This document shows, piece by piece, positions 13,335-45,768 of a stretch of DNA of 64,000 nucleotides. Source of the DNA: Escherichia coli (GTDB taxonomy: Bacteria; Pseudomonadota; Gammaproteobacteria; Enterobacterales; Enterobacteriaceae); the NCBI RefSeq assembly GCF_048403405.1, contig NZ_CP183129.1, one strand, 5' to 3'. Positions within the stretch are counted from its first letter, which is position 1, and each line of letters starts with the position of its first letter. The notes beneath the pieces are model-generated. The model searched no databases, was not told where the DNA came from, and saw nothing but the letters and a program-made list of their open reading frames with translations. Both the position numbers and the translations under genes were made by a program.

Positions 13335-15713
13335 ATGTCCAACAATGGCTCGTCACCGCTGGTGCTTTGGTATAACCAACTCGGCATGAATGATGTAGAC
13401 AGGGTTGGGGGCAAAAATGCCTCCCTGGGTGAAATGATTACTAACCTTTCCGGAATGGGTGTTTCCGTTCCGAATGGTTTCGCCACAACCGCCGACGCGT
13501 TTAACCAGTTTCTGGACCAAAGCGGCGTAAACCAGCGCATTTATGAACTGCTGGATAAAACGGATATTGACGATGTTACCCAGCTTGCGAAAGCGGGCGC
13601 GCAAATCCGCCAGTGGATTATCGACACTCCCTTCCAGCCTGAGCTGGAAAACGCCATCCGCGAAGCCTATGCACAGCTTTCCGCCGATGACGAAAACGCC
13701 TCGTTTGCGGTGCGTTCCTCCGCTACTGCAGAAGATATGCCGGACGCTTCTTTTGCCGGTCAGCAGGAAACTTTCCTCAACGTTCAGGGTTTTGACGCCG
13801 TTCTCGTGGCAGTGAAACATGTATTTGCTTCTCTGTTTAACGATCGCGCCATCTCTTATCGTGTGCACCAGGGTTACGATCACCGTGGCGTGGCGCTCTC
13901 CGCCGGTGTTCAGCGGATGGTGCGCTCCGACCTCGCATCTTCTGGCGTGATGTTCTCCATTGATACCGAATCCGGCTTTGACCAGGTGGTGTTTATCACT
14001 TCCGCATGGGGCCTTGGTGAAATGGTCGTGCAGGGTGCGGTTAACCCGGATGAGTTTTACGTGCACAAACCGACACTGGCGGCGAATCGCCCGGCTATCG
14101 TGCGCCGCACCATGGGGTCGAAAAAAATCCGCATGGTTTACGCGCCGACCCAGGAGCACGGCAAGCAGGTTAAAATCGAAGACGTACCGCAGGAACAGCG
14201 TGACATCTTCTCGCTGACCAACGAAGAAGTGCAGGAACTGGCAAAACAGGCCGTACAAATTGAGAAACACTACGGTCGCCCAATGGATATTGAGTGGGCG
14301 AAAGATGGCCACAGCGGCAAACTGTTCATTGTGCAGGCGCGTCCGGAAACCGTGCGCTCACGCGGTCAGGTCATGGAGCGTTATACGCTGCATTCACAGG
14401 GTAAGATTATCGCCGAAGGCCGTGCTATCGGTCATCGCATCGGCGCGGGTCCGGTGAAAGTCATCCATGACATCAGCGAAATGAACCGCATCGAACCTGG
14501 CGACGTGCTGGTTACTGACATGACTGACCCGGACTGGGAACCGATCATGAAGAAGGCATCTGCCATCGTCACCAATCGTGGCGGTCGTACCTGTCACGCG
14601 GCGATCATCGCTCGTGAACTCGGCATTCCGGCGGTAGTGGGCTGTGGTGATGCAACAGAACGGATGAAAGACGGTGAGAACGTCACTGTTTCTTGTGCCG
14701 AAGGTGATACCGGTTATGTCTATGCGGAGTTGCTGGAATTTAGCGTGAAAAGCTCCAGCGTAGAAACGATGCCTGATCTGCCGTTGAAGGTGATGATGAA
14801 CGTCGGTAACCCGGATCGTGCCTTTGACTTCGCCTGCCTGCCAAATGAAGGCGTAGGTCTGGCGCGCCTGGAATTTATCATCAACCGCATGATTGGCGTC
14901 CACCCACGCGCACTGCTTGAGTTTGACGATCAGGAACCGCAGTTGCAAAACGAAATCCGCGAGATGATGAAAGGTTTTGATTCTCCGCGTGAATTTTACG
15001 TTGGGCGTTTGACTGAAGGGATCGCGACGCTGGGGGCCGCGTTTTATCCGAAGCGCGTCATTGTCCGTCTCTCTGATTTTAAATCGAACGAATATGCCAA
15101 CCTGGTCGGTGGTGAGCGTTACGAACCAGATGAAGAGAACCCGATGCTCGGCTTCCGTGGCGCGGGCCGCTATGTTTCCGACAGCTTCCGCGACTGCTTC
15201 GCGCTGGAGTGTGAAGCAGTGAAACGTGTGCGCAACGACATGGGGCTGACCAATGTTGAGATCATGATCCCGTTCGTGCGTACCGTAGATCAGGCGAAAG
15301 CGGTGGTTGAGGAACTGGCGCGTCAGGGGCTGAAGCGTGGTGAGAACGGGCTGAAAATCATCATGATGTGTGAGATTCCGTCCAACGCCTTGCTGGCAGA
15401 GCAGTTCCTCGAATATTTCGACGGCTTCTCAATTGGCTCAAACGACATGACACAGCTGGCGCTCGGTCTGGACCGTGACTCCGGAGTGGTGTCTGAACTG
15501 TTCGATGAGCGCAACGATGCGGTGAAAGCACTGCTGTCGATGGCGATTCGTGCCGCGAAGAAACAGGGCAAATATGTCGGGATTTGCGGTCAGGGTCCAT
15601 CCGACCACGAAGACTTTGCTGCATGGTTGATGGAAGAGGGGATCGATAGCCTGTCTCTGAACCCGGACACCGTGGTGCAAACCTGGTTAAGCCTGGCTGA
15701 ACTGAAGAAATAA
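13335..15713 (+). CDS. ppsA: Phosphoenolpyruvate synthase
   Basis: 792 aa, [34 protein letters not shown]; PEP-utilising enzyme phosphohistidine motif [13 protein letters not shown]. Confidence 0.96.
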
Positions 15714-15721
15714 AATAAATA

Positions 15722-15747
15722 CCCGGCGGCGTTTTGTCGCCGGGTTT
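15722..15747. terminator. Hairpin between convergent ppsA and fadK
   Basis: CCCGGCGGCG-TTTTGT-CGCCGGG followed by TTTATG; could serve either strand. Confidence 0.55.
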
Positions 15748-15769
15748 ATGTGATCCCCGAAGATGAAAC

Positions 15770-17470
15770 TTATTCAATCTCTTCACAGACATCCTGAGTT
15801 AATCGCCGCATAATATCTTTCCTTAACAAAAACTTTTGTATTTTACCTGAGACAGTGCGCGGTAGTTTTTCGATTACCACGATATGTTCAGGATATTTAT
15901 ATTTCGCGATCCGTTTACGGCTAAAAAAAGCCACCACCTCTTCCAGCGATAATGAATGATGCGGCGCTTTAAGCACGACATAAGCGCATGAGCGTTCACC
16001 TAAACGTTCATCGGGCATCGCAACCACACAGGCATCGTGAATTTTAGGATGCTGCAATAAAATATCTTCTACTTCACGGCTGCTAATATTTTCGCCGCCG
16101 CGGACAATAATATCTTTCTTGCGCCCGGTTATTTTTATATAGCCAGCCTCATCCATGCGGCAGAGATCGCCGCTGTAATACCAGCCTTCTTCATCCAGCG
16201 CACGGGCGGTTAATTCAGGTTCATCAAAATACCCCATAAACACATTGGGGCCACGCGAGGCTTCTTCACCTTCGCAACCTGGCGGTAAGGTCTTGCGTGC
16301 GTCATCGACCACTTTAATCTCAACTCCTGCGACAGCGTAACCATCGGTATGCATAAAGCGCGACAAAGGATCATCGAGATTCACCACTGCGTGCGGCGAA
16401 CTTTCTGTGGAACCATAAACACTTAATAATTTAATGCCGCGCTGCTGGCATTCACGCGCCACTTTTTTGGGGATTGTGGTACCGCCGCAAAGAAAGAAAC
16501 GCAGCGCTGAAAGGTCAGCGGGCTGTTTCTCCAGTAAATTCAAAAGATCATAGACAAACGGCGTTGCGCCGAGCATACAGGTGCAACGCTGCTGCTCAAG
16601 CAGCGCGAGACACGCAGCAGGAGTGAAAATATCTAACAACACGCTGCGAGCACCAATTAAAAATGGTGCCGTTACGCCATGCAGAAAGCCCGTTGCATGA
16701 CCAAGTGGCGCAGGCATCATAAAGACATCCTGCCAGGTCAGATTCAACCGCGCGCAATAAGCCCGCTCACTGGCGAGAATATTGTTATGCGTTAGCATCA
16801 CGCCCTTTGGCAGACCCTCGGTTCCGGAGGTAAACAGCACCGCGGCTAATTCATCGCCGTGGACCGTTATCGCCGTGGTCAGAGGAGTATTGTCGGCGAT
16901 AATCTGACTTAATGAGAGAGCAGAGGTGGCGGGAGCCAGTTTGTCCACGCCGACAATTTGTTGTAGTTGTGGAAGCTGATTTTGCAGCGGCAAGATTAAA
17001 TCTACCGGACGCGTTTGTTTAAACAACGTCGGTGCAAAGAACATTTTTGCCTGACACTTATTGAGCACCCACACCAGTTCTGCTTCTCGCCAGGAAGGCA
17101 ACAGCGGCACGGAAACCGCACCGATTTTCAGGCAGGCAAGATAGATAACGGTAAATTCACACCAGCCAGGCAGTTGAAATGCGATGCGATCGCCTGATTC
17201 AATACCCTTCGCTAACATCCAGTTTGCCAGACAGCTCGCGGCGTGATCGAGCGCGCTATAGGTGTACGATGCACCATGATTATCGACCACGGCAATTTTG
17301 TCTGGCATCGCACGAGCGGTCTGCTGCCAGTAATCGGCCAGCGAAGCATCGCCCCATAGCCCTTGCTGACGATACGCCGCACGACGTTGTTCGTTAAACG
17401 TTAATGTCACTTTCATTTTGGACTCTCGAAACAGAGCATCAGGCCCGAGATGCGGGCCTGTGGGATGCAT
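15770..17470 (-). CDS. fadK: Short-chain acyl-CoA synthetase (anaerobic)
   Basis: 566 aa AMP-binding-family ORF (TSGTEGLPKGV); an alternative start at 17416 (MKVTLTFNEQ) has an upstream GAGAG. Confidence 0.88.
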   Translation of the reverse strand: MHPTGPHLGPDALFRESKMKVTLTFNEQRRAAYRQQGLWGDASLADYWQQTARAMPDKIAVVDNHGASYTYSALDHAASCLANWMLAKGIESGDRIAFQLPGWCEFTVIYLACLKIGAVSVPLLPSWREAELVWVLNKCQAKMFFAPTLFKQTRPVDLILPLQNQLPQLQQIVGVDKLAPATSALSLSQIIADNTPLTTAITVHGDELAAVLFTSGTEGLPKGVMLTHNNILASERAYCARLNLTWQDVFMMPAPLGHATGFLHGVTAPFLIGARSVLLDIFTPAACLALLEQQRCTCMLGATPFVYDLLNLLEKQPADLSALRFFLCGGTTIPKKVARECQQRGIKLLSVYGSTESSPHAVVNLDDPLSRFMHTDGYAVAGVEIKVVDDARKTLPPGCEGEEASRGPNVFMGYFDEPELTARALDEEGWYYSGDLCRMDEAGYIKITGRKKDIIVRGGENISSREVEDILLQHPKIHDACVVAMPDERLGERSCAYVVLKAPHHSLSLEEVVAFFSRKRIAKYKYPEHIVVIEKLPRTVSGKIQKFLLRKDIMRRLTQDVCEEIE

Positions 17471-17472
17471 GA

Positions 17473-17766
17473 TTAGCCGTAGCGAAAATCAATACCGAAG
17501 GTGCCTGCGGGATATTGCCACTGTTCGAGAATAGTGTTACCGCACAGCACCCGACAGGTGCCGCACTCCAGACAACCGGCAGAATCAAAATGAATGTTGC
17601 CGGCATCATCCTGCTTATAAAGTCCGGCAGGGCAGGCTTTCATTAATTTACGGAATTCATTGATATCGGGATTTGCCGCCAAAATGATATGCGGGTGGCC
17701 CTCATCAACATGGAATTTATTGACGCCTAATTTGATGTCGACGTTAACCGTAGCGTTCTGGCTCAT
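17473..17766 (-). CDS. ydiT: FixX-like ferredoxin
   Basis: 97 aa with Cys cluster CPAGLY...CLECGTCRVLC; its start overlaps the ydiS stop (ATGA). Confidence 0.9.
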   Translation of the reverse strand: MSQNATVNVDIKLGVNKFHVDEGHPHIILAANPDINEFRKLMKACPAGLYKQDDAGNIHFDSAGCLECGTCRVLCGNTILEQWQYPAGTFGIDFRYG

Positions 17767-19052
17767 AGCGCGGTTGCTCCCTTAATGCCATCTTTCAGCA
17801 AGTTGATCAGCCCAATTTTCTTCGCGTGTCCCATGATCATTTTGCGTACCGGCTGGTTTGGTTTGCCGTCAATGGTGAACATCTCGTTCATGATGTCGGC
17901 TACCATTCGTGGGTATTGGCTAAACAGGCGCGGGTTTTCCATCAGCGCCGGGATCTTGCGAAAATGCTGCATATCACGCATGACGCAGCTTTGTTCCAGC
18001 TCACGTTTGTATTGCGCAAGACTGCTGGCGGAGAAATCCGCGCGTTCTTTGGCGGCGATCACCGTTGTGGCGGCAGCCTGAGCCGATGCAATGGCTAAAT
18101 CCATGCCGCGGACCGTAAAACCCAAATTCAGGCAGAAGCCTGCGGCGTCACCGACGATCATCACGCCATCGTTAACCAGCTGCGGCACCATTGCCAGACC
18201 GCCCTCCGGCACCATATGCGCGGAGTATTCAAGCAGTTTGCCGCCGCTAATCAGCGGGCGAATGGCGGGGTGTTGTTTAAAATCTTCCAGCATTTGCGGC
18301 ACACTTTTTTGCGCATGGGCGATATCACCCAATCCACAAACCAGCCCCAACGATACGGAATCCTTGTTGGTATAGAGGAATCCGCCACCCATCAGGCCGT
18401 CAGAAGGGGAACCGGCAAACAGCCAGGCGGCACCTTCCTCGCCCGTAATATTAAAGCGATCGTTGATCTGTTCTGGTGTGAGGCCAATAACCTCTTTAAC
18501 ACCAACAGCGTAATGATGCGGATCGGAAGCGGGAACCATTCCCAGCGAGCGGCCAAGCATCGAGTTAACGCCATCAGCCAGAATCACCACATTCGCTTCA
18601 AGAACATCATCCCCGGCCTGAACGCCAGTGACCTTGTTTCCTTCACGAACCAGCGCATCGACACGAACGCCCGGGATAAACTGCGCGCCAGCCTGCTCGG
18701 CTTGTTCCATCAACCACGGGTCCAGACGATTACGCAATACGGTATAAGACGCGTGTTGCGGAACATCTGGTTGCTCGCGGTGAAAGTCGAGGGTAACGGC
18801 GCTTTCTTCGGTTAAGAAGGAGATTTTCTCGCGAGTGACCTTGCGTTCTACCGGCGCTGATGCTGCAAAGCCTGGAATAATCGCTTCAAGTGTGTGGGCA
18901 TAAAGACGCCCGCCGGTCATGTTTTTACATCCGGCACTGTCGCCGCGTTCTATCACCAGGACATCCAGCCCGGCTCGCGCCATGACCAGTGCGGCAACGC
19001 TACCGGCAACGCCCGCACCGACCACAATGGCATCAAATTTGTCATCCGACAT
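17763..19052 (-). CDS. ydiS: FixC-like ETF:quinone oxidoreductase flavoprotein
   Basis: 429 aa with N-terminal FAD-binding GxGxxG (MSDDKFDAIVVGAGVAGSVAA). Confidence 0.9.
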   Translation of the reverse strand: MSDDKFDAIVVGAGVAGSVAALVMARAGLDVLVIERGDSAGCKNMTGGRLYAHTLEAIIPGFAASAPVERKVTREKISFLTEESAVTLDFHREQPDVPQHASYTVLRNRLDPWLMEQAEQAGAQFIPGVRVDALVREGNKVTGVQAGDDVLEANVVILADGVNSMLGRSLGMVPASDPHHYAVGVKEVIGLTPEQINDRFNITGEEGAAWLFAGSPSDGLMGGGFLYTNKDSVSLGLVCGLGDIAHAQKSVPQMLEDFKQHPAIRPLISGGKLLEYSAHMVPEGGLAMVPQLVNDGVMIVGDAAGFCLNLGFTVRGMDLAIASAQAAATTVIAAKERADFSASSLAQYKRELEQSCVMRDMQHFRKIPALMENPRLFSQYPRMVADIMNEMFTIDGKPNQPVRKMIMGHAKKIGLINLLKDGIKGATAL

Positions 19053-19107
19053 GCGTTATGCTCCCTTCCCGCTGCGTTTACAGCGGGAGATGTGGTTGAA
19101 AGGGGAA

Positions 19108-20046
19108 TTAGCGGCTCAACTGGCTAATCAGGGCAGGGACGACTTTGTAGATATCGCCCACCAGACCGTAGTCGGCATAGTTGAAGATTGGCGCATTTTT
19201 ATCTTTATTGATGGCGACAATCACTTTTGCGCCGTTGCCGCCAACCATATGCTGGATCTGCCCGGAAATCCCCAGCGTCAGGTAGAGATCGGATTTCAGC
19301 AACACGCCGGAGACACCGATATAACGTTCACGCTCCATCCAGTTCTCGCCTTCGGCAATTGGACGTGAACAGCCGACTTCAGCATTCAGCACCGCCGCCA
19401 GTTCGTGGACCATTTTCAGGTCATCCTGCGCCGCCAGACCACGACCGACGCCAACCACACGTTTTGCTTTGCTCAGGTCCACGCTGCTTGCGGCTTTCGC
19501 ACGGCGTTCGCGACAGAGAATTTCATGACGCGGAGCAACATAAGGTACCGTTTCTGTCGGGCACTGATGAGCGGTATCACTGGTGCACGGTTCCTGAACA
19601 CCGGGTGCAAGGGTAATGATCGCCAGCGGGCTGTTGATCTTTTCCTGTGCGAACGCTAACCCGCCATACATCCGGTGTTCGGCGCAAATGTGACCATCGA
19701 CAATATCCACCGCAGTGGCATCGTTCACCAGCGCCGCATTCAGTTGCACACTTAACCGTGCTGCCAGAGCTTTACCACGTTTCGTCGCGGCCAGCAGCAA
19801 CATAGAAGGGTGTTTATCTTTCAGCAGGGCAGCAATGCTTTCGGCGTAATTTTCAGTACGTTGCAGCGCATCATTTTGCTCAAGAACATAAATACATTTT
19901 GGACCATAAGGCATAACTGCCTGCGCCTGGTCGGTATTTTGTACAATGGCATACACCTGTTGGCCCCATTGCTGCGCGCCGCCAAACAGTTCAGCATAAC
20001 GTTCAGGATTATCGCTAAAGACCCAGACGCTGTTTAATTGACTCAT
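19108..20046 (-). CDS. ydiR: Electron transfer flavoprotein alpha subunit (FixB-like)
   Basis: 312 aa, ETF-alpha family; downstream of ydiQ in the same operon. Confidence 0.9.
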   Translation of the reverse strand: MSQLNSVWVFSDNPERYAELFGGAQQWGQQVYAIVQNTDQAQAVMPYGPKCIYVLEQNDALQRTENYAESIAALLKDKHPSMLLLAATKRGKALAARLSVQLNAALVNDATAVDIVDGHICAEHRMYGGLAFAQEKINSPLAIITLAPGVQEPCTSDTAHQCPTETVPYVAPRHEILCRERRAKAASSVDLSKAKRVVGVGRGLAAQDDLKMVHELAAVLNAEVGCSRPIAEGENWMERERYIGVSGVLLKSDLYLTLGISGQIQHMVGGNGAKVIVAINKDKNAPIFNYADYGLVGDIYKVVPALISQLSR

Positions 20047-20065
20047 CGTTTCTTCTCCGTAGGCT

Positions 20066-20830
20066 TCAGTTCAGGGCTTTCTTCAGATGTTCCGCCAGCT
20101 CGGCAATGGCCTCCGGCGAATCGTTATCGAGAATGATGTGCTTACGTTCTGTTTGCGGCGGTACGCGAATGCCGGTCAGTTCAGCAAGCGGCGCGCTCTG
20201 GCTCCAGCCAATGTCACTTGCCTGCCACTGATTTACCGGTTTTTTACCCGCGCCGAGAATGGCTTTCATCGAAGGAATGCGTGGCATGTTAATATCGGAG
20301 GTGACGCAGAGCACGGCTGGAACAGAGAGCTCAATAACTTCAACATCATCTTCAAGCGTGCGTTCAATCACCAGTGTATTGCCCTGACGCTGAATAGCAC
20401 TCACTGCATTAATCACCGGAAGTTGCAGAATTTCTCCGACCAGCAAGCCAACCTGCTGGGCATAAAGGTCGCCGGAACCTTCACCAAAGATCAGTAAATC
20501 GAAGCCGATTTTTTCAACTGCTGCCGCCAGCGCCTTTGCGGTATCGAGAGGCAGTGCATGTTCAAGTTGCGCATCCTGCACCAAATACAGGCTATGCGGC
20601 CCGCGGGATAGCACGTCTTTACGCACTTTCGAGTTCTGCAACAATGAGCCGCCAATGGTCAGCGCGGCTATCTCATCGTCATCTGTTGCAATCTGGCTTG
20701 CAGCTTCAATGGCATTGAGATCGAACTGGCTGATTTTGGCGTCGGCATTGTCGAAATTCAGGGTATATTCTGGAGTGACAACAATGTCCTGTTCTTCAGG
20801 CACCAGCTTAAAGCAGGTTATTATTTTCAT
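20066..20830 (-). CDS. ydiQ: Electron transfer flavoprotein beta subunit (FixA-like)
   Basis: 254 aa from the internal ATG (MKIITCFKLVPEEQD) with AGGAGA 7 nt upstream; the 287-aa track ORF is an N-terminal over-extension. Confidence 0.9.
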   Translation of the reverse strand: MKIITCFKLVPEEQDIVVTPEYTLNFDNADAKISQFDLNAIEAASQIATDDDEIAALTIGGSLLQNSKVRKDVLSRGPHSLYLVQDAQLEHALPLDTAKALAAAVEKIGFDLLIFGEGSGDLYAQQVGLLVGEILQLPVINAVSAIQRQGNTLVIERTLEDDVEVIELSVPAVLCVTSDINMPRIPSMKAILGAGKKPVNQWQASDIGWSQSAPLAELTGIRVPPQTERKHIILDNDSPEAIAELAEHLKKALN

Positions 20831-21145
20831 GATTTCTCCTGTGAGTCGCATACGGAACCATCTCCGATGGAAGGTAAAAATGGCCTGAAAATAGTGTGCG
20901 ATAGCAGGGCGGGGTTTTCGACGGAGCAAGCTGTTTTCCTTGCCAACAATCTTGCAAAAAAAATGCGATCGCTAAAACAAAAGTGCAATTTGCGGCAATA
21001 TAGTTATTCCATGACCGTACAATCTTGCATTCAGTGTAAATAATCTTGTTTAGCTCTCGCTAAACGCGGTTGTATAACCGCAATACACGCCGTATTTTAT
21101 CCGGCATATATTGTTTTTGCTTGCTCATGGAATAGGGAGGTTGTC

Positions 21146-22057
21146 ATGTATCAACGCTGTTTTGATAACGCCAGCGAAACGCTGTTTGTTGCCGGTAAAA
21201 CGCCACGGCTTTCACGTTTTGCATTTAGCGATGATCCAAAATGGGAGTCCGGACATCACGTTCATGACAATGAAACCGAGTTGATTTACGTCAAGAAAGG
21301 GGTAGCAAGGTTTACCATCGATTCTTCGTTATATGTCGCGCACGCCGATGACATTGTGGTGATAGAACGTGGCAGGCTGCATGCGGTGGCCTCTGACGTT
21401 AACGATCCGGCAACGACGTGTACCTGTGCGCTGTACGGCTTTCAGTTTCAGGGGGCTGAGGAAAATCAGCTACTGCAACCGCATTCTTGCCCGGTAATTG
21501 CCGCAGGGCCGGGAAAAGAAGTCATTAAAACCTTATTTAATGAGCTAAGTGTGATTTTGCCGCAAAGTAAAAATAGCCAAACATCTTCGTTATGGGACGC
21601 CTTTGCCTATACGTTAGCAATTCTTTACTATGAAAACTTTAAAAATGCTTATCGTTCGGAGCAGGGATATATTAAAAAAGATGTTCTGATAAAAGATATT
21701 CTTTTCTATCTGAATAATAACTATCGCGAAAAAATCACTTTAGAGCAGTTATCGAAAAAGTTTCGTGCCAGCGTCAGTTATATTTGCCATGAATTTACCA
21801 AAGAGTATCGTATTTCCCCTATTAACTATGTTATTCAACGGCGTATGACGGAAGCGAAATGGTCACTCACTAATACTGAATTATCACAGGCAGAGATCTC
21901 CTGGCGTGTGGGTTATGAAAATGTCGATCACTTTGCCAAACTGTTTTTGCGCCATGTCGGCTGTTCGCCCAGCGATTACCGCAGGCAATTTAAAAACTGT
22001 TTTGCGGAACAAGAAATCTTATCTGAATTTCCTCAACCGGTAAGTCTTGCCGGATAA
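21146..22057 (+). CDS. ydiP: AraC-family transcriptional regulator
   Basis: 303 aa; C-terminal AraC-type HTH region; divergent from ydiQ. Confidence 0.88.
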   Translation: MYQRCFDNASETLFVAGKTPRLSRFAFSDDPKWESGHHVHDNETELIYVKKGVARFTIDSSLYVAHADDIVVIERGRLHAVASDVNDPATTCTCALYGFQFQGAEENQLLQPHSCPVIAAGPGKEVIKTLFNELSVILPQSKNSQTSSLWDAFAYTLAILYYENFKNAYRSEQGYIKKDVLIKDILFYLNNNYREKITLEQLSKKFRASVSYICHEFTKEYRISPINYVIQRRMTEAKWSLTNTELSQAEISWRVGYENVDHFAKLFLRHVGCSPSDYRRQFKNCFAEQEILSEFPQPVSLAG

Positions 22058-22099
22058 ATCTGGCGGCGCAGTTTGTTAAGAAGCTGCGCCGCCTGCAGA

Positions 22100-23251
22100 T
22101 TATTTGTTCTGATAATCTTTCAGGATCTGCCGACCCGCTACGTAAATCATAATTTCGTCTGTACCGCCGCCGATACGTTCACAACGGACATCACGCCAGA
22201 AGCGAGAGACGCGCGCCTCATCGGTATAGCCCAGACCGCCCATGATTTGAATCGCATCATCAATAACTTCCATTGCGGTACGTGCGCAGTACAGTTTTGC
22301 CAGCGCCGCGCTGGTGCGCAGTGACTGATGCTGATCGGCTTGCCATGCCACTTTCAACACCATGTTGCGCATGTTGTCGATCTTAATCGCCATCAGCGCC
22401 AGTTTTTCCTGGATCATCTGGTTATGACCAATGGGCTTACCAAAAGCGATACGTTGGTTGGCATAGCGGGCGGCATCTTCAAAGGCACACTCGGCAAAGC
22501 CGGTGCTGCGCGCGGCGTTGATCAGGCGCTCCATCTCAAAGTTGTACATCACATTGAGGAAACCCATTCCTTCTTCGCCCACCATGTCGCTCTCTTCAAC
22601 TTCCACGTTGTCGAGATAGACTTCGCAGGTGCTGAGCATATGCCAGCCGATTTTATGCAGCGGGTTAATCTTAATGCCGGGCTTACTGGAGTCGACCCAC
22701 CACAGGGTGAAGGCTTTTTTGGGATCTTTCGGTTCTGGATCGCGCGCCAGCACCAGCATATACGGGTACTCTTTCGCGCCGGTAATAAAGGTTTTCTGGC
22801 CGTTGATGTAAACCTTGCCGTTTTTACGCGTGTAAGTGGTGGTGGCGCTGTTGTTATCTGAGCCTGCGCCTGGTTCCGTCAATGCCAGGGCATAGGCGGG
22901 ATCACCCGTTTCCAGGGTGCTCTCTGCCGTTTTACGTAGCTGCTCTGCAGAACCGAAACGGCGCATACTGTGAATACATTGACCGTTGGTGATCAAAAAT
23001 GCCGGGGCACCGCATTTTGACACTTCCATCAGCGCCAGCATTTGGGTGACGTAATCCGCAGGGATACCACCAAATTCTTCCGGCACGCCAAGCATGGAAA
23101 TACCGTTATCCGCCAGTGCCCGCATAAATTCACGCGGGTATGTCCCGTTTTGATCGCAGGTGCGGAAATACTCTTCCGGAAAGTTAGTCGTAATCAGTTC
23201 GCGAATACTGGCCAGCAGCAGTTCTTGTTCTTCAGTTAAAGAAAAATCCAT
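22100..23251 (-). CDS. ydiO: Acyl-CoA dehydrogenase family protein
   Basis: 383 aa from the internal ATG (MDFSLTEEQELL) with AGGAG upstream; acyl-CoA dehydrogenase family. Confidence 0.9.
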   Translation of the reverse strand: MDFSLTEEQELLLASIRELITTNFPEEYFRTCDQNGTYPREFMRALADNGISMLGVPEEFGGIPADYVTQMLALMEVSKCGAPAFLITNGQCIHSMRRFGSAEQLRKTAESTLETGDPAYALALTEPGAGSDNNSATTTYTRKNGKVYINGQKTFITGAKEYPYMLVLARDPEPKDPKKAFTLWWVDSSKPGIKINPLHKIGWHMLSTCEVYLDNVEVEESDMVGEEGMGFLNVMYNFEMERLINAARSTGFAECAFEDAARYANQRIAFGKPIGHNQMIQEKLALMAIKIDNMRNMVLKVAWQADQHQSLRTSAALAKLYCARTAMEVIDDAIQIMGGLGYTDEARVSRFWRDVRCERIGGGTDEIMIYVAGRQILKDYQNK

Positions 23252-23264
23252 CGTGATACTCCTG

Positions 23265-24860
23265 TTAATGAGCCGCTTCAGGCAGGACAAAACCCATCGC
23301 CGCATCGATAAATAATCTTTCGTCCATCAGTTTGAGTTCTGGCGAAATCGCTGGGGTGAAATCCATTTTGTCGAGAATATCTTTTTGTAAATCGACGCCA
23401 GGGGCGATTTCGATTAAATGCAGGCCGTCTTCTTTCAGCGTGAATACTGCGCGCTCAGTGATATAACGAACATCCAGCCCTCGCTCGAGAGCGATTTTTC
23501 CGCTGAAAGTAATTTCCGGTAGTTCCCGAATAAATTTCTTCACCCATCCTTCCTGGACGATATTTAATTTGCCGTCGGTAATTTCTGTTTTTAAACTGCC
23601 CGCAGTTAATGTGCCGCAGAAAACGATTTTCTTCGAAGTGGCACTGATATCAATAAATCCACCGGTGCCCATGATTTTACCATTGAATTTATGCACGCCG
23701 ACGTTACCGTGCTGGTCGACTTCAGCAAAACTCAAATAACAAACATCCAGACCGCCACCGTGATAAAAATCAAACTGGGACGTCATATCCAGAATGGCAC
23801 GGGTATTCACGTTCGCGCCAAAGGCGATCCCCTGTGAAGTAATTCCGCCAATCGGACCTGTTTCTACCGTCAGAATAAAGTCATCAGCACAACCTTCTTC
23901 TCGGGCGACCAGGCCAATGCCGTCAGCAATACCGACGCCGACATTCCCCACCGCGCCTTTACGCATTTCGAATAATGCGCGCCGTGCAACTAATTTACGT
24001 TGGTTTAGGGGCAGGCTAAGTTTGGTGCTGTCATCAAGGGTGAAGTCACCAGAAATAAAGCGGTTAACCGGCGCACCGCCATACAGTTGGGTTTGATCCG
24101 GATCGACCACCACAATATCCACCAGATAACCCGGAATACGGACAGATTTAGGATGCAGCGTGGCTTTCTTAACCATTTTCTGCACCTGCATCATCACAAT
24201 ACCGCCGTTATTGTGCACCGCCTGGGCAATAACCAATGCGTCGAGATACATCACCTCATCTTCAAAAGTGGCGTAGCCTTCGCTGTCGCAGGTGGTAGCG
24301 CGAATGAAGGCGATATCTGGCGCAATCGCTTTGTAATAGAGATATTCTTGGTTATCAAACTCGACCAGTTTAATCAGGTCTTCTTTAGTGACTTCATTCA
24401 GTTTGCCGCCTTGCTGGCGTGGATCAACAAATGTCCCGATGCCAATATCACTAATAATACCAGGCTGGTGGGCTGCGGCGGCGCGTAAGGTTTGTGTAAG
24501 TACACCTTGTGGATAGTTATAAGCAATAATTTTATTTTGTTCTGCGAGATCAGAAATACGCGGCGATTGTCCCCAGTGACCGCATAATGCCCATTTCACC
24601 AGACCTTCTTGTGCCAGCGGACTAATACCACGGTCGGCGCGATCGCCAAGCCCTGTTGGACTAATAATCGATAAATTACGTGGTGTTTGAGTCTGTTTAT
24701 ATTTATCAGCAAGAGCAGTAATTAACGTGGTGGCTTCCAGAATACCGCCGCCAGCGCCTAACACACAAAGTGTTGCTTCGTCGGGAATATAATTCACCGC
24801 TTCCTGTGCCGACAGGACCGGCACTCGTCCATTAATACGAGGTGGTTTTACAGGTTTCAT
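23265..24860 (-). CDS. ydiF: Acyl-CoA:acetate CoA-transferase (fused alpha/beta subunits)
   Basis: 531 aa, MKPVKPPRINGRVPVLSAQEAVNYIPDEATLCVLGAGGG. Confidence 0.9.
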   Translation of the reverse strand: MKPVKPPRINGRVPVLSAQEAVNYIPDEATLCVLGAGGGILEATTLITALADKYKQTQTPRNLSIISPTGLGDRADRGISPLAQEGLVKWALCGHWGQSPRISDLAEQNKIIAYNYPQGVLTQTLRAAAAHQPGIISDIGIGTFVDPRQQGGKLNEVTKEDLIKLVEFDNQEYLYYKAIAPDIAFIRATTCDSEGYATFEDEVMYLDALVIAQAVHNNGGIVMMQVQKMVKKATLHPKSVRIPGYLVDIVVVDPDQTQLYGGAPVNRFISGDFTLDDSTKLSLPLNQRKLVARRALFEMRKGAVGNVGVGIADGIGLVAREEGCADDFILTVETGPIGGITSQGIAFGANVNTRAILDMTSQFDFYHGGGLDVCYLSFAEVDQHGNVGVHKFNGKIMGTGGFIDISATSKKIVFCGTLTAGSLKTEITDGKLNIVQEGWVKKFIRELPEITFSGKIALERGLDVRYITERAVFTLKEDGLHLIEIAPGVDLQKDILDKMDFTPAISPELKLMDERLFIDAAMGFVLPEAAH

Positions 24861-25004
24861 TGTTAATTCCTGATTCAGATGTGATTTTCCCTACGCCAGA
24901 TGGAGAATTAGCGCACAGAGACTCACGAAATATTTTTATTAAATACGGTTAAATATATTTTTTTAGTTCGGCGGGGGAGGATGTTCCCGCCGAAATATTA
25001 TTGC

Positions 25005-25763
25005 TTATGCCTGATGTAAAATAGTTAATACTGTGCGCAAATCATTTACCGAGATTTGCCCTGGTGCAGAGGCCTTTTTTACCGCACCAAAAGTTGCCGC
25101 CGAGCCAAATACTTCACCAGCCAGACGAGAAATTACGCCAGTTTTTGCCATTGACATCGTGATGATTGGACGATCGGCATACTGCTCCTGCATCTCCAGG
25201 GTCGCGGCAAGCAACGTCAGCACATCGCTGGTACTTTGCGGCATCAGCGCAATCTTAGGAATATCGGCGTCGAAGGACTGCATTTTGCGCAGACGGGCAA
25301 TGATTTCTTCGGCTTCCGGCGTTTTATGGAAGTCATGGTTGGACATGACAACTTTCACATCATGCGCGTGGGCGTAGGCGACGGTTTCTTTAACCTGATC
25401 ATCGCCGGTAAATAACTCCAGATCGATCATATCAACCAGGCCGCTGTCGATGGCTGCACGATTGAGTGCAATATAAGCCTCGGTGGAAATCGCCTGCTCG
25501 CCGCCTTCTTTGGCACTGCGGAAGGTAAACAGCAGCGGTTTTTCTGGCATGGTTTCACGGAGAATTTTTGCCGCCGCCATGACAGAATCCACATTGGAGA
25601 GGTCGGCATAGTGGTCAACACGCCATTCCAGAATATCAAAGTCCGCTTCACGATAGGCGAGAGCTTCAGATTTCACGCTGGCGATATCTTTCGCCATCAG
25701 CGAGACGATGATTTTAGGTGCGCCCGTACCAATGACGAGATCTTTTACAGTTACGGTTTTCAT
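25005..25763 (-). CDS. aroD: 3-dehydroquinate dehydratase, type I
   Basis: 252 aa, [52 protein letters not shown]. Confidence 0.95.
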
Positions 25764-25793: not shown

Positions 25794-26660
25794 TCAGGCA
25801 CCGAACCCCATGACCTGTTTAACATATTCCAGAGGGAAATCTTTGCCAGTCCATAACGTGAACTGTTCAGCCCCTTGCCACAACAACATGCCGTATCCAT
25901 CAATCGTTTTGCAACCAGCTTGTTGCGCCTGCTGCAATAACTTCGTCATATGCGGGTTATACACGCATTCAGTGACCAGAAGTCCCGGATGTAACAGACT
26001 GATATCATTAACCAATGATTCATTCTCAAGGGGTTTCATACCCACTTTTGTGCCATTGGTTAAAATGTCGGCGGAAGCCAGGGCTTCAGCAAAGGCTTGC
26101 TGATCGGCGAGATCGGTAACCGTGACGACACAATCGGTGTTTTCGTTAACCCGCTGCGCGAAGGCGAGGGCTTTATCGAAGAACTCATCCCGACGGTTAA
26201 AGAGTTTAATTTCTTTTAAACCTTCAATTGCCCCCTGCGCGCCAATCGCCGTTGAGGCACCTCCGGCCCCTAACAGCACCATCGTTTTGCCTTTGATATC
26301 AAAACCGCTCTCTTTAATGGCGCGAATATGGCCCGTGCCGTCGGTGTTATAGCCACGCAGATAGCCATCATCATTAACGATGGTGTTGATGGCACCCACC
26401 AGTTTGGCCGCTGGCGTTAATTCATCAACATATTCACACGCCAGTTGTTTGTTCGGCATTGATACACCAGTTCCGCGCATTTTGAGGGCTTTTAATCCTT
26501 CAATTGCTCCGGGAAAACTATCGTTATCCACTTCAAAAGCCATATAGGTAAATGGCAATCCCGCTTTTTCTAAGGCTTTATTCTGCATTTCAGGCGATAA
26601 ACTGTGGCGGATGGGATATGCCATCAGCCCAATCAATTCGTATTTTGCGGTAACATCCAT
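25794..26660 (-). CDS. ydiB: Quinate/shikimate dehydrogenase
   Basis: 288 aa, [35 protein letters not shown]; AroE paralogue family. Confidence 0.93.
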
Positions 26661-26671
26661 AATTAACTCCT

Positions 26672-27937
26672 TTAACCTCTATGCTTAATTGTGTTTAACC
26701 GGGTGCTAAATTTACGCTCGCCAAACCGCACATCATTTTCAGGAATAATGAAAACGCGGTAATAGCGGATAAAGACAATAATTGCGGTAATCAGGGCCAG
26801 CAGCGCGAAAGTAAAATCGAGAGCAATGATATATTGCAGGCCGATGTTCGACAGATAACCGGTAATCAGCGGAATAACAAAATTAGCCAGTCCACCCATC
26901 ATCATATATATACTGGTGACTTTGGCTTTGCTTTTTGGGAAAAACTCTGACATGACCGAAACGCCGAGCTGTAAAATGCCGCCAGCTGCTGAGAAACCGA
27001 TAACAAAGGCTCCGGCATTACACACCAATGGAGAAGGGTACAGGTAGATAATGGCAGCTGTTATTGTTGCCAGTGCAGAGTTAAATACATTAGCCCAGAT
27101 GGGCCGGACCATTTTTTTCAGCAGTGCGGCAAAAATAAAGACACAGACCAACGAGCCCATACTGTAATAAGAGATGGTTTTTAATGCCTCAGCTTCTGAC
27201 ATACCAGCAAAAGCCATCGCATATTTGGGCATCCACACCACAATCACATAAAAGGTCGAGAATGCGGCTACACCGAACAGTACTGATGAAACACCTTCCA
27301 GCCAGACTAACGGTTTGCTGTTCATTTGCGGTAATTCATTAGCTACGCTGGCGTCCACCAACTGGCTGGGGAATTTGCTTTTCAACAGCATCAGTGTGAT
27401 CAGTACAAACAGAATACCCGGAATAATCAGCCCATAGCCGTACCAGATGTTATTGAGCAACATATAGCTCACCAGCATTGGGTAGAACATTTGCCCGAAT
27501 GACACCATCGCTTTAACCAGTATGACCGCCGAACCAGAGGCTTTCGGAAAGCATTCCATGAGCGCGGGGTAGCCACCCGTATCCAGCGCTGAGTTAGCGA
27601 TACCTACGCACACTGCCAGACAGTAGGCGAGAGTTAAATTCGGGCAAGCGGGAATACCAAAGAAGAATAGCAGATACATTATTACTGCCATTAATATCAC
27701 CGCCCGACGACCAAACTTATCGGAGATCACACCGAAGAATAAAATACTGATCAATCGCCCCAAACCGATACCGGAAATTAAATAGGCAATGCCCGCGTTG
27801 TCAGTGGAAAACTTTTCTGCCAGAGATGACATATTTTGGGCAAGCGTAATAACACTAATGCCGTGCAGGAAATAGCTGAAGTAAATACAAAGAACAGCCA
27901 GGATAAATGGCGTGCTGAAAGCCTTATTTTGAGACAT
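26672..27937 (-). CDS. ydiN: MFS transporter
   Basis: 421 aa from the ATG at 27937 ([11 protein letters not shown]), with AGGAG 8 nt upstream; the track ORF begins two codons earlier at a GTG. Confidence 0.88.
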
Positions 27938-28163
27938 TTTCACAGCTCCTTGCTGAAAGATAATTTCGTTACCGTACGTATTGTTCTCCGACGGTTCACA
28001 TAATTACTATACTGAAGATGATTTTCCCTGGGTACATGGCATAAAGTTTATGTTTCCAGGAATATTGCATGTCATAGTTTGTTTTTTATCGCGATTTTCG
28101 TTAGTTGGCGCAGAAAGAGTTATTTATCCGTAAGATCTTGCATGACCTGAAAAGAATATTGCA

Positions 28164-45754: not shown

Positions 45755-45768
45755 TTGATAACGATCAA
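45755..45768. promoter_or_regulatory. Consensus FNR site upstream of ydhY
   Basis: TTGATAACGATCAA is a perfect TTGAT-N4-ATCAA FNR box in the AT-rich region about 200 bp upstream of the ydhY ATG; the ydhYVWXUT operon is known to be FNR-activated. Confidence 0.7.

Follow-up and report, generated by a model that had tools for sequence, protein, structure and literature searches.

The 64,000-nucleotide stretch of the Escherichia coli chromosome analysed here (RefSeq assembly GCF_048403405.1, contig NZ_CP183129.1; hereafter the window) carries at positions 15770–24860 the segment fadK-ydiTSRQ / ydiP / ydiO-ydiF, eight genes in three transcription blocks. Their products include a coenzyme A (CoA) transferase, an acyl-CoA dehydrogenase (ACAD) and an electron-transfer flavoprotein (ETF). 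The native substrate of the system is not settled, as the original prediction, made from the sequence alone, had said; a y-ome paper grants ydiO limited functional information (PMC6412132). The ydi genes are already known and annotated, and the locus itself is no discovery. What is put forward here is that these genes may act with the adjacent ydiN-ydiB-aroD block to reduce shikimate or quinate in a CoA-dependent way, with electrons drawn from quinol and without bifurcation. The genes concerned are the following, where AMP is adenosine monophosphate, FAD flavin adenine dinucleotide, ETF-QO ETF:quinone oxidoreductase, NAD(P) nicotinamide adenine dinucleotide (phosphate) and MFS the major facilitator superfamily.

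15770–17416, minus strand: fadK (ydiD), AMP-forming acyl-CoA ligase, an accessory part of the unit
17473–17766, minus strand: ydiT, FixX-like ferredoxin with a single 4Fe-4S motif
17763–19052, minus strand: ydiS, FixC-like FAD protein with an ETF-QO quinone-binding domain; overlaps ydiT by 4 bp
19108–20046, minus strand: ydiR, ETF alpha (large) subunit; Pfam ETF and ETF_alpha
20066–20830, minus strand: ydiQ, ETF beta (small) subunit of the FixA/YdiQ class; Pfam ETF
21146–22057, plus strand: ydiP, AraC-family regulator, divergent from ydiQ and convergent with ydiO
22100–23251, minus strand: ydiO, FAD-dependent enzyme of the acyl-CoA dehydrogenase family, CaiA clade, with three ACAD domains
23265–24860, minus strand: ydiF, fused family-I CoA-transferase; PF01144 CoA_trans
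25005–25763, minus strand: aroD, type I 3-dehydroquinate dehydratase (RefSeq), beyond the segment as first delimited and within the conserved unit
25794–26660, minus strand: ydiB, NAD(P)-dependent quinate/shikimate dehydrogenase (RefSeq)
26672–27937, minus strand: ydiN, MFS transporter (RefSeq), at the head of the ydiN-ydiB-aroD block

Pfam and NCBIfam gave domain assignments with very small E-values for all eight products of the segment, and the earlier reading of the cluster is borne out gene by gene, in position and in domain. It extends to YdiP, taken there for a divergent AraC regulator, which has AraC_binding/Cupin_2 and HTH_18 domains and is encoded divergently from ydiQ. Several E. coli chromosomes contain the segment with 100% DNA identity, and 5348 of 5426 complete genomes of the species have it at ≥80% coverage, which makes it in essence part of the core genome. 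Between E. coli and Yersinia or Dickeya (loci L002, L004 and L009–L047) YdiO is 92–93% and YdiF 88–89% identical, a conservation as high as that of PpsA between E. coli and Citrobacter; YdiQ, YdiR, FadK and YdiP are only 65–77% identical in the same loci. In Sutterella YdiO is still 80–84% identical.

The open reading frames (ORFs) of fadK, ydiQ and ydiO (15770–17470, 20066–20929 and 22100–23305) are longer at the 5' end than the RefSeq genes, by 18, 33 and 18 codons respectively, and a YdiQ version of 287 amino acids is present in NCBI. The segment can also be lost: in E. coli E69 (L049) ydiF is kept beside ppsA, and ydiO through fadK are gone. In Enterobacter sp. EA-1 (L048) the cluster matches in fragments, with ydiT split and ydiS missing, which suggests decay into pseudogenes.

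The evidence on what the cluster does comes first from its surroundings. Forty-five loci from species-representative genomes were retrieved with YdiO, and the proteins of the window were mapped onto each. In all cluster-bearing Enterobacterales loci examined, ydiN-ydiB-aroD-ydiF-ydiO are contiguous and aroD adjoins ydiF. The genera with this block include Escherichia, Citrobacter, Kosakonia, Serratia, Dickeya, Brenneria and Yersinia, and it is the ppsA side that varies. The original prediction had proposed a comparison of ydiO and ydiQRST across genomes; by such a comparison the limits of the cluster had been drawn too tight, for ydiN-ydiB-aroD are part of the unit.

Elsewhere the same genes recur in other orders. 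In two species of Sutterella, which are gut Betaproteobacteria, ydiT-ydiS-ydiR-ydiQ run divergently from ydiN-ydiB-aroD-ydiF-ydiO, with aroD again adjoining ydiF, gaps of 26–80 bp between genes and amino-acid identities to the window of 60–84%; this version has neither ydiP nor fadK. About 20 human-gut metagenome contigs show the Sutterella arrangement wherever the contig is long enough, and the contigs that a YdiO alignment retrieved from metagenomes were mostly those of E. coli and Sutterella, without any further gene order. Three further contigs of 42–44% GC (L052, L053 and L056) carry YdiO homologues 77–83% identical to that of the window. L052 has an AraC gene divergent from an operon in the order MFS, CoA-transferase, ACAD, ETF beta, ETF alpha, shikimate dehydrogenase, type I dehydroquinase, FixC, FixX. 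L053 is similar; its dehydroquinase gene separates ETF alpha from FixC, and FixX is followed by a ligase. The order in L056 is AraC, MFS, MFS, CoA-transferase, ACAD, ETF beta/alpha, shikimate dehydrogenase, dehydroquinase, and no fixCX was found nearby. The dehydrogenases of the Sutterella, L052 and L056 clusters are YdiB orthologues (75–77% identity) and not AroE-like, and YdiN orthologues (64–69% identity) head the Sutterella and L052 operons. The Sutterella, L052 and L056 versions all have aroD and ydiB, and none of them has fadK.

Across the five gene orders, a dehydroquinase accompanies YdiF, YdiO and the ETF in all five, shikimate dehydrogenase is there in four and FixCX is adjacent in four. 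Five rearranged orders have thus retained the same genes, which is the pattern expected of a single pathway. Genes for a hydratase, a 3-hydroxyacyl-CoA dehydrogenase or a thiolase were found neither in the window cluster nor in the related loci examined. As a control, YdiO relatives at 63–68% identity, on a JGI contig (L055) and in Desulfovibrio desulfuricans (L058), lack the shikimate genes and have a CaiB-type transferase instead. From the conserved neighbourhood, together with the shared cis-motif described below, we infer that the cluster works with ydiN-ydiB-aroD on quinate- or shikimate-derived acids.

The sister clusters in L055 (1181–15913) and L058 (7271–19772) comprise the CaiB-type transferase, an MFS protein, a YdiO-like ACAD, ETF beta/alpha and FixCX, and in addition a metallo-beta-lactamase-fold protein, an AMP-ligase and a dCache chemoreceptor.

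The intergenic regions of the unit contain four elements:

21022–21048, minus strand: block A, paired motif CAAGAT-N15-CAAGAT, candidate operator for the AraC-type YdiP
20925–20965, minus strand: block B, TTTTTTTGCAAGATTGTTGGCAAGGAAAACAG, in the ydiP-ydiQ intergenic region, candidate activator site of the ydiQ promoter
28135–28161, minus strand: second paired motif, CAATAT-N15-CAAGAT, 224 bp upstream of ydiN
24967–24994, no strand assigned: GC-rich hairpin with an 11-bp stem between aroD and ydiF, followed on the gene strand by A-rich sequence without a T run

In an alignment of ydiP-ydiQ intergenic regions, blocks A and B are nearly invariant from Escherichia to Yersinia, and block B extends to Dickeya. 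The half-sites of block A are spaced 21 bp start to start, a geometry typical of the AraC family, and the pair is kept in about 30 Enterobacterales loci; the 11-mer ACAATCTTGCA of block B lies in the same place in 27 loci. The pattern CAAKAT-N15-CAAGAT matches twice in the window, in the ydiP-ydiQ spacer and upstream of ydiN, against 0.04 matches expected by chance. Escherichia, Citrobacter and Intestinirhabdus all keep the pair upstream of ydiN. L052 too has the pattern, between its single operon and the divergent gene for an AraC regulator, a YdiP orthologue (45% identity). The paired motif is therefore a candidate YdiP operator, and it would join ydiN-ydiB-aroD and ydiQRST in one regulon.

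A third TGCAATAT element at 28062–28069, about 130 bp upstream of ydiN (aTGCAATATTCCTGGAAACATAAAC), resembles block B (TGCAAGATTGTTGGCAAGGAAAAC), and the ydiN and ydiQ promoter regions may share a two-block architecture. In Yersinia and Dickeya a gene for a LysR-type regulator lies upstream of ydiN (L002 556–1458, L004 195–1097), and the CAAGAT pair was not found within 450 bp of ydiN in these two genera; control of ydiN-ydiB-aroD may differ from genus to genus. The hairpin between aroD and ydiF is probably a weak terminator at best, or a stabiliser, and read-through from aroD into ydiF is possible. When the 1.3-kb ydiQ-ydiN spacers of the two Sutterella species were aligned, neither a conserved element nor a hidden regulator ORF was seen. 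A search for FNR boxes gave no convincing site in the ydiP-ydiQ spacer, the near matches lying inside or at the start of ydiP, and a consensus scan for promoters and terminators over 15500–25300 returned counts at chance level and was not used.

Elsewhere in the window, a perfect FNR consensus, TTGATAACGATCAA, lies at 45755–45768, some 200 bp ahead of ydhY. This gene opens the ydhYV... operon (ferredoxin-like / aldehyde ferredoxin oxidoreductase), which is known to be under anaerobic control, and the site agrees with that.

YdiO scores 787 bits with NCBIfam PRK12341; its next model is CaiA at 452 bits, under the 540-bit cutoff, so YdiO is a paralogue of CaiA rather than an orthologue. The two E. 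coli proteins (CaiA of strain K-12) are 48% identical and have the motifs RxGGGxDE and FxxER in common. Members of the YdiO/CaiA clade have Gly (RIGGGTDEIM, YdiO residues ~359–368) at what we take to be the position of the catalytic Glu376 in medium-chain acyl-CoA dehydrogenase (MCAD), and a conserved Glu in NFEMERL (residues ~238–243), which we take to be the base site of isovaleryl-CoA dehydrogenase (IVD). The catalytic geometry would then be like that of IVD or of long-chain acyl-CoA dehydrogenase (LCAD). In K-12, caiTABCDE lies next to fixABCX and runs divergently from it; the annotation of CaiA is crotonobetainyl-CoA reductase. Since CaiA and FixABCX are the next-best models, the ydi cluster is paralogous to a system that feeds electrons into an enoyl-CoA, and YdiO is proposed to be an enoyl-CoA reductase. 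A comparison for residues specific to the shikimate-associated YdiO group yielded only 2 positions, uninformative on the substrate. The structures of YdiF (2AHU, 2AHV and 2AHW) were deposited as 'putative enzyme ydiF'. FadK matches the NCBIfam equivalog NF004758, medium-chain fatty-acid--CoA ligase, at 1088 bits, and its second-best model is cyclohexanecarboxylate-CoA ligase at 424 bits.

The original prediction had likened the gene content to CarABCDE and to Bcd-EtfAB, and rightly so, as a CoA-transferase, a ligase, an ACAD, ETF beta and alpha and a ferredoxin-like protein are all present. It is the electron bifurcation implied by that likeness that does not survive inspection of YdiQ, YdiR and YdiT. 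Bifurcating ETFs differ from canonical ones in having a second FAD between the small subunit and domain I (PMC8958531, PMC6764259, PMC12630350). The small-subunit motif DGDTAQ is found in 216 bifurcating ETFs (D 100%, G 95%, D 85%, T 100%, A 86%, Q 93%), and the corresponding motif of 449 canonical ETFs is DDDxNQ (PMC8958531). The Gly of DGDTAQ has to be a small residue, which avoids a clash with the second flavin (PMC12630350). Asp93, Thr94 and Thr97 of EtfB (R. palustris numbering) contact the bifurcating FAD, which is lost in a T94A/T97A mutant (PMC6764259).

YdiQ was aligned by HMMER with CarD, LctB and Clostridioides difficile EtfB, which are bifurcating, and with the Paracoccus and human ETFs, which are canonical. 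A search of a 90%-clustered database with YdiQ returned close orthologues only, and a 50%-cluster library was used instead. The family alignment (MAFFT, 102 sequences) consisted of YdiQ, 96 full-length representatives of the nearest 50%-identity clusters, and PDB fragments. In the HMMER alignments YdiQ reads GEGSGDLYAQQVG where bifurcating ETFs read GRQAIDGDTAQVG. Both kinds of alignment set DLYAQQ of YdiQ against DGDTAQ, with Leu, Tyr and Ala in the Gly, Asp and Thr columns, and LPLDTAK against the bifurcating ADTWATS, with Leu-Pro at Asp93-Thr94 and only Thr97 retained. The bifurcating motif is absent from 95 of the 96 family representatives, the remaining one having the true motif. Most of them carry G(E/D)GSxDxY(A/S)QQ(V/T)G or a close variant, a family motif common to YdiQ, E. 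coli FixA, the Sutterella protein and Desulfovibrio relatives; K-12 FixA has GDGSSDLYAQQVG where YdiQ has GEGSGDLYAQQVG. Many of the more distant members keep an ADTxxTA-like first motif.

YdiR, of 312 amino acids, aligns to residues 69–392 of CarE only. It has no N-terminal ferredoxin domain, by the lack of a Fer4 match in Pfam and of any alignment to the CarE N-terminus. Arg165 of EtfA, near the beta-site nucleotide, is retained (GKALAARLS) and is not diagnostic of bifurcation, for 447 of 449 canonical ETFs carry it (PMC8958531). YdiT has five Cys, C45 and C65xxC68xxC71xxxC75, that is, a single CxxCxxCxxxC motif and one distal Cys-Pro, with a weak match to PF05187 Fer4_ETF_QO; a bifurcating FixX bears two [4Fe-4S] motifs (PMC6085437, PMC5861303). 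Bifurcation is disfavoured because the motifs of YdiQ are altered, YdiR is without the ferredoxin domain and YdiT has one Fe-S motif, and YdiQR appears to be a non-bifurcating ETF of the E. coli FixAB class.

YdiS points to a quinone as the partner of this ETF. It matches PF21162 ETFQO_UQ-bd at 38 bits (cutoff 27.7), and its matches in the PDB are the Thermotoga FixC 7KOE_C at 5e-71 and the pig ETF-QO 2GMH at 2e-24. After their own models, YdiQRST score best with FixA (324 bits), FixB (321), FixC (642) and FixX (144) of NCBIfam. YdiS and YdiT together look like a split ETF-QO, and the cluster as a whole like a non-bifurcating, quinone-linked flavoprotein chain. At another locus (L051, 468–11930) a YdiQ-family ETF of 49% identity, with an ACAD, FixC and FixX, adjoins genes for UbiA, UbiE and polyprenyl synthase; these neighbours link the YdiQ-type ETF class to quinone synthesis. 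The L051 set also adjoins a sigma-54 gene and the gene for its activator.

The energetics bear on the direction of electron flow. Potentials of about −10 mV for crotonyl-CoA/butyryl-CoA and about −70 mV for menaquinone have been given (PMC5861303). With these values the reduction of an enoyl-CoA by menaquinol needs no bifurcation and is mildly exergonic, and the oxidation of an acyl-CoA against menaquinone is uphill.

Shikimate is a 1-cyclohexene-1-carboxylate, and shikimoyl-CoA is therefore an enoyl-CoA. Sutterella wadsworthensis and Eggerthella lenta grow with formate while reducing the enoate of shikimate to 3,4,5-trihydroxycyclohexanecarboxylate, and antibiotic treatment was followed by a downward trend in faecal shikimate (Little et al., bioRxiv 10.1101/2022.12.26.521950). 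RNA sequencing in that study was confined to E. lenta and H. filiformis and so points to no enzyme in Sutterella. In a shikimate-overproducing E. coli, ydiQ, ydiR, ydiS and ydiT were among about 50 genes up between stationary-phase samples (PMC4015609), and ydiB, aroD and ydiN were up under carbon limitation in another shikimate producer (PMC4585142). A report of '3-hydroshikimate' in the supernatant of E. coli Nissle is probably a naming slip for a pathway intermediate and was not used as evidence.

A route consistent with these observations can be outlined, modelled at each step on the cai/fix system for carnitine. YdiN would import quinate or shikimate, and YdiB and AroD would interconvert quinate, 3-dehydroquinate, 3-dehydroshikimate and shikimate. 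FadK would prime the cycle with a first CoA thioester, after which YdiF would recycle CoA from product to fresh substrate, giving shikimoyl-CoA, much as CaiC and CaiB are used. YdiO would reduce the double bond of shikimoyl-CoA, or of a closely related enoyl-CoA, with electrons passing from menaquinol through YdiS/YdiT and YdiQR. YdiF would then free 3,4,5-trihydroxycyclohexanecarboxylate (hydroshikimate), which would leave the cell, and YdiP, as the dedicated AraC-type regulator, would sense the substrate. We consider the chances about even that the ydi system works in this way, reducing shikimate or quinate in a CoA-dependent reaction, with electrons from quinol and without bifurcation. The broader proposal, of an unrecognised cytoplasmic, CoA-dependent 'shikimate/quinate respiration' in E. 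coli, in most Enterobacterales examined and in gut Sutterella, is held a little more tentatively.

Several points weigh against this proposal. The reductive direction of electron flow is deduced from homology, energetics and the Sutterella phenotype. No paper was found in the searchable literature that connects shikimate or quinate with ydiF, ydiO or ydiQRST of E. coli. The evidence of the two shikimate-producer transcriptomes is circumstantial, and both are without a non-producing control. The E. lenta shikimate reductase is a periplasmic-type flavin reductase and not an ACAD (bioRxiv 10.1101/2022.12.26.521950), and one of the many flavin reductases of Sutterella could act on shikimate there. 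AroD is also the biosynthetic dehydroquinase of E. coli, so that its adjacency within the Enterobacterales alone could be historical. A further locus (L057) has MFS, CoA-transferase and ACAD genes beside bipA with no dehydroquinase, shikimate dehydrogenase or ETF nearby. The YdiQ motif is neither the bifurcating consensus nor the canonical DDDxNQ, and the beta site may hold AMP, nothing or something else. Finally, published genetics, as cited in two later papers, place fadK and Salmonella ydiQRSTD in anaerobic fatty-acid or butyrate oxidation (PMC3967523, PMC13170390).

That last point belongs to the main rival, an anaerobic beta-oxidation of short- or medium-chain acids. FadK would activate the acid and YdiO would oxidise the acyl-CoA to the enoyl-CoA, with electrons going from YdiQR through YdiST to quinone and on to nitrate, tetrathionate or another acceptor; FadIJ, encoded elsewhere, would complete the cycle, and YdiF would exchange CoA with acetate or butyrate. 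The equivalog assignment of FadK fits this well, ACAD to ETF to ETF-QO is the classical oxidative chain, and in a preprint ydiO matters for fatty-acid use in a fadE mutant. For an anaerobic beta-oxidation pathway of ydiFO, ydiQRST and fadHIJK the two papers refer to Campbell et al. (2003) and Bronner et al. (2018), and they assign butyrate utilisation to Salmonella ydiQRSTD (PMC3967523, PMC13170390). However, the cluster offers none of the hydratase, 3-hydroxyacyl-CoA dehydrogenase and thiolase that such a cycle uses, and it is fadK that is missing in Sutterella, L052 and L056, whereas the dehydroquinase is kept in five of five arrangements and the shikimate dehydrogenase in four of five. The motif shared by ydiN and ydiQ is left unexplained, and electrons would have to pass uphill from acyl-CoA (−10 mV) to menaquinone (−70 mV). 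We judge this explanation unlikely, if the most serious of the alternatives; it and shikimate reduction could each hold in part, provided that more than one dehydrogenase is served by the ETF chain.

The shikimate genes could also be used in the opposite sense. Hydroshikimate or another cyclohexanecarboxylate from gut microbes would be imported, activated with CoA and dehydrogenated by YdiO to shikimoyl-CoA; electrons would enter the quinone pool, and shikimate, with quinate by way of YdiB and AroD, would enter aromatic amino-acid synthesis. Such a salvage draws on the same neighbourhood evidence as the reductive route, aroD and ydiB join directly to the biosynthetic pathway, and ACAD/ETF/ETF-QO chains usually run oxidatively. 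Shikimate, the substrate of the reduction, has been measured in faeces. Yet the reaction observed in Sutterella is reductive and stimulates growth, the annotation of the closest characterised paralogues, CaiA and FixABCX, is that of a reductase system, and menaquinone is on thermodynamic grounds a poor acceptor for the oxidation. Oxidative salvage is accordingly rated improbable, well below beta-oxidation.

Least credible, and in our estimate very improbable, is an electron-bifurcating enoyl-CoA reductase, in which YdiQR would take a hydride from NADH at a second, bifurcating FAD and send one electron to YdiO and the enoyl-CoA, or to quinone through YdiS, and the other through YdiT to a low-potential ferredoxin or flavodoxin, after the manner of Bcd-EtfAB, CarCDE or diazotroph FixABCX: the parallel in gene content with CarABCDE and FixABCX, the bifurcating CarD, LctB and C. 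difficile EtfB as the best-scoring PDB matches of YdiQ, the ADTxxTA-like first motif of many distant relatives, and the metabolic-engineering literature that modelled YdiO with YdiQRST and reduced ferredoxin speak for it, and against it stand the flavin-space Gly replaced by Leu, the invariant Thr by Ala and Asp93-Thr94 by Leu-Pro in YdiQ, the single cluster motif of YdiT, the missing ferredoxin domain of YdiR, and the finding that deletion or overexpression of YdiO hardly altered butyrate output in strains with reversed beta-oxidation (2026 review, PMC13126070).

The reduction of shikimate or quinate by the ydi system thus has as its novelty a testable substrate hypothesis for a cluster whose substrate has been open for two decades. 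The substrate class is suggested by gene order conserved across rearrangements, by the shared motif and by the independent phenotype of Sutterella. Metabolic-engineering models have assumed a ferredoxin-linked enoyl-CoA reductase, against which the missing hallmarks of bifurcation argue. If the proposal is true, the dietary plant acids quinate and shikimate would be funnelled to shikimoyl-CoA and reduced with menaquinol electrons to hydroshikimate, which would add a respiratory electron acceptor to the physiology of E. coli. One pathway would give functions to at least eight y-genes and explain why E. coli retains the YdiB paralogue. It would also supply the missing enzyme for shikimate respiration in S. 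wadsworthensis, and a genetic basis for a reduction long known from gut microbes, that of the quinate and shikimate which coffee, fruit and chlorogenic acid provide.

Among known systems, the caffeyl-CoA reductase CarABCDE and Bcd-EtfAB, whose ETFs belong with LctBC and diazotroph FixAB to bifurcating group 2, resemble the ydi cluster in their CoA-transferase, ligase, ACAD-family reductase and ETF beta/alpha, and provide the top-scoring solved structures for both YdiQ and YdiR. They reduce an alpha,beta-unsaturated acyl-CoA as an electron sink, as is proposed on the ydi side. The differences lie in YdiQ, without the bifurcating-FAD motif, in YdiR, without the ferredoxin domain, and in the quinone-linked FixC/FixX pair of the ydi cluster. 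The bifurcating FixABCX of Azotobacter and Rhodopseudomonas and EtfABCX of Thermotoga (7KOE) have the same four-gene architecture, with the close match of YdiS to 7KOE_C (5e-71); in contrast to these, YdiQ is without the bifurcation motifs, YdiT has one Fe-S motif where they have two, and there is no link to nitrogen fixation.

The mitochondrial-type chain of ACAD, ETF and ETF-QO shares the logic of the electron path, YdiS and YdiT together making up the FAD, the quinone site and the one 4Fe-4S cluster. In the ydi system the ETF-QO is split in two, the beta-site motif of YdiQ is not DDDxNQ, and the direction is proposed to be reductive. The shikimate reductase of Eggerthella lenta (Little et al.) turns shikimate into hydroshikimate as a respiratory sink in a gut bacterium, which is the net reaction proposed for the ydi system. 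It is of an unrelated enzyme family, a flavoprotein like fumarate and urocanate reductases that acts on the free acid, whereas the ydi route would be cytoplasmic and CoA-dependent.

The fullest parallel is with the carnitine system of E. coli, caiTABCDE and fixABCX. Here YdiF belongs to family I (PF01144) and CaiB to family III (PF02515), the ydi transporter is of the MFS and not of the CaiT type, the regulator is AraC-type and not CaiF, and AroD would dehydrate the free acid and not the CoA ester. In other respects the two systems agree: each has a transporter, a CoA-transferase that recycles CoA, an AMP-forming ligase for priming, a dehydratase that creates the enoate and a reductase of the CaiA clade, with an ETF, FixC and FixX set encoded divergently. 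Both YdiO and CaiA have Gly at the position of MCAD Glu376, FixA and YdiQ carry GxGSxDLYAQQVG, and FixX and YdiT are both single-motif ferredoxins.

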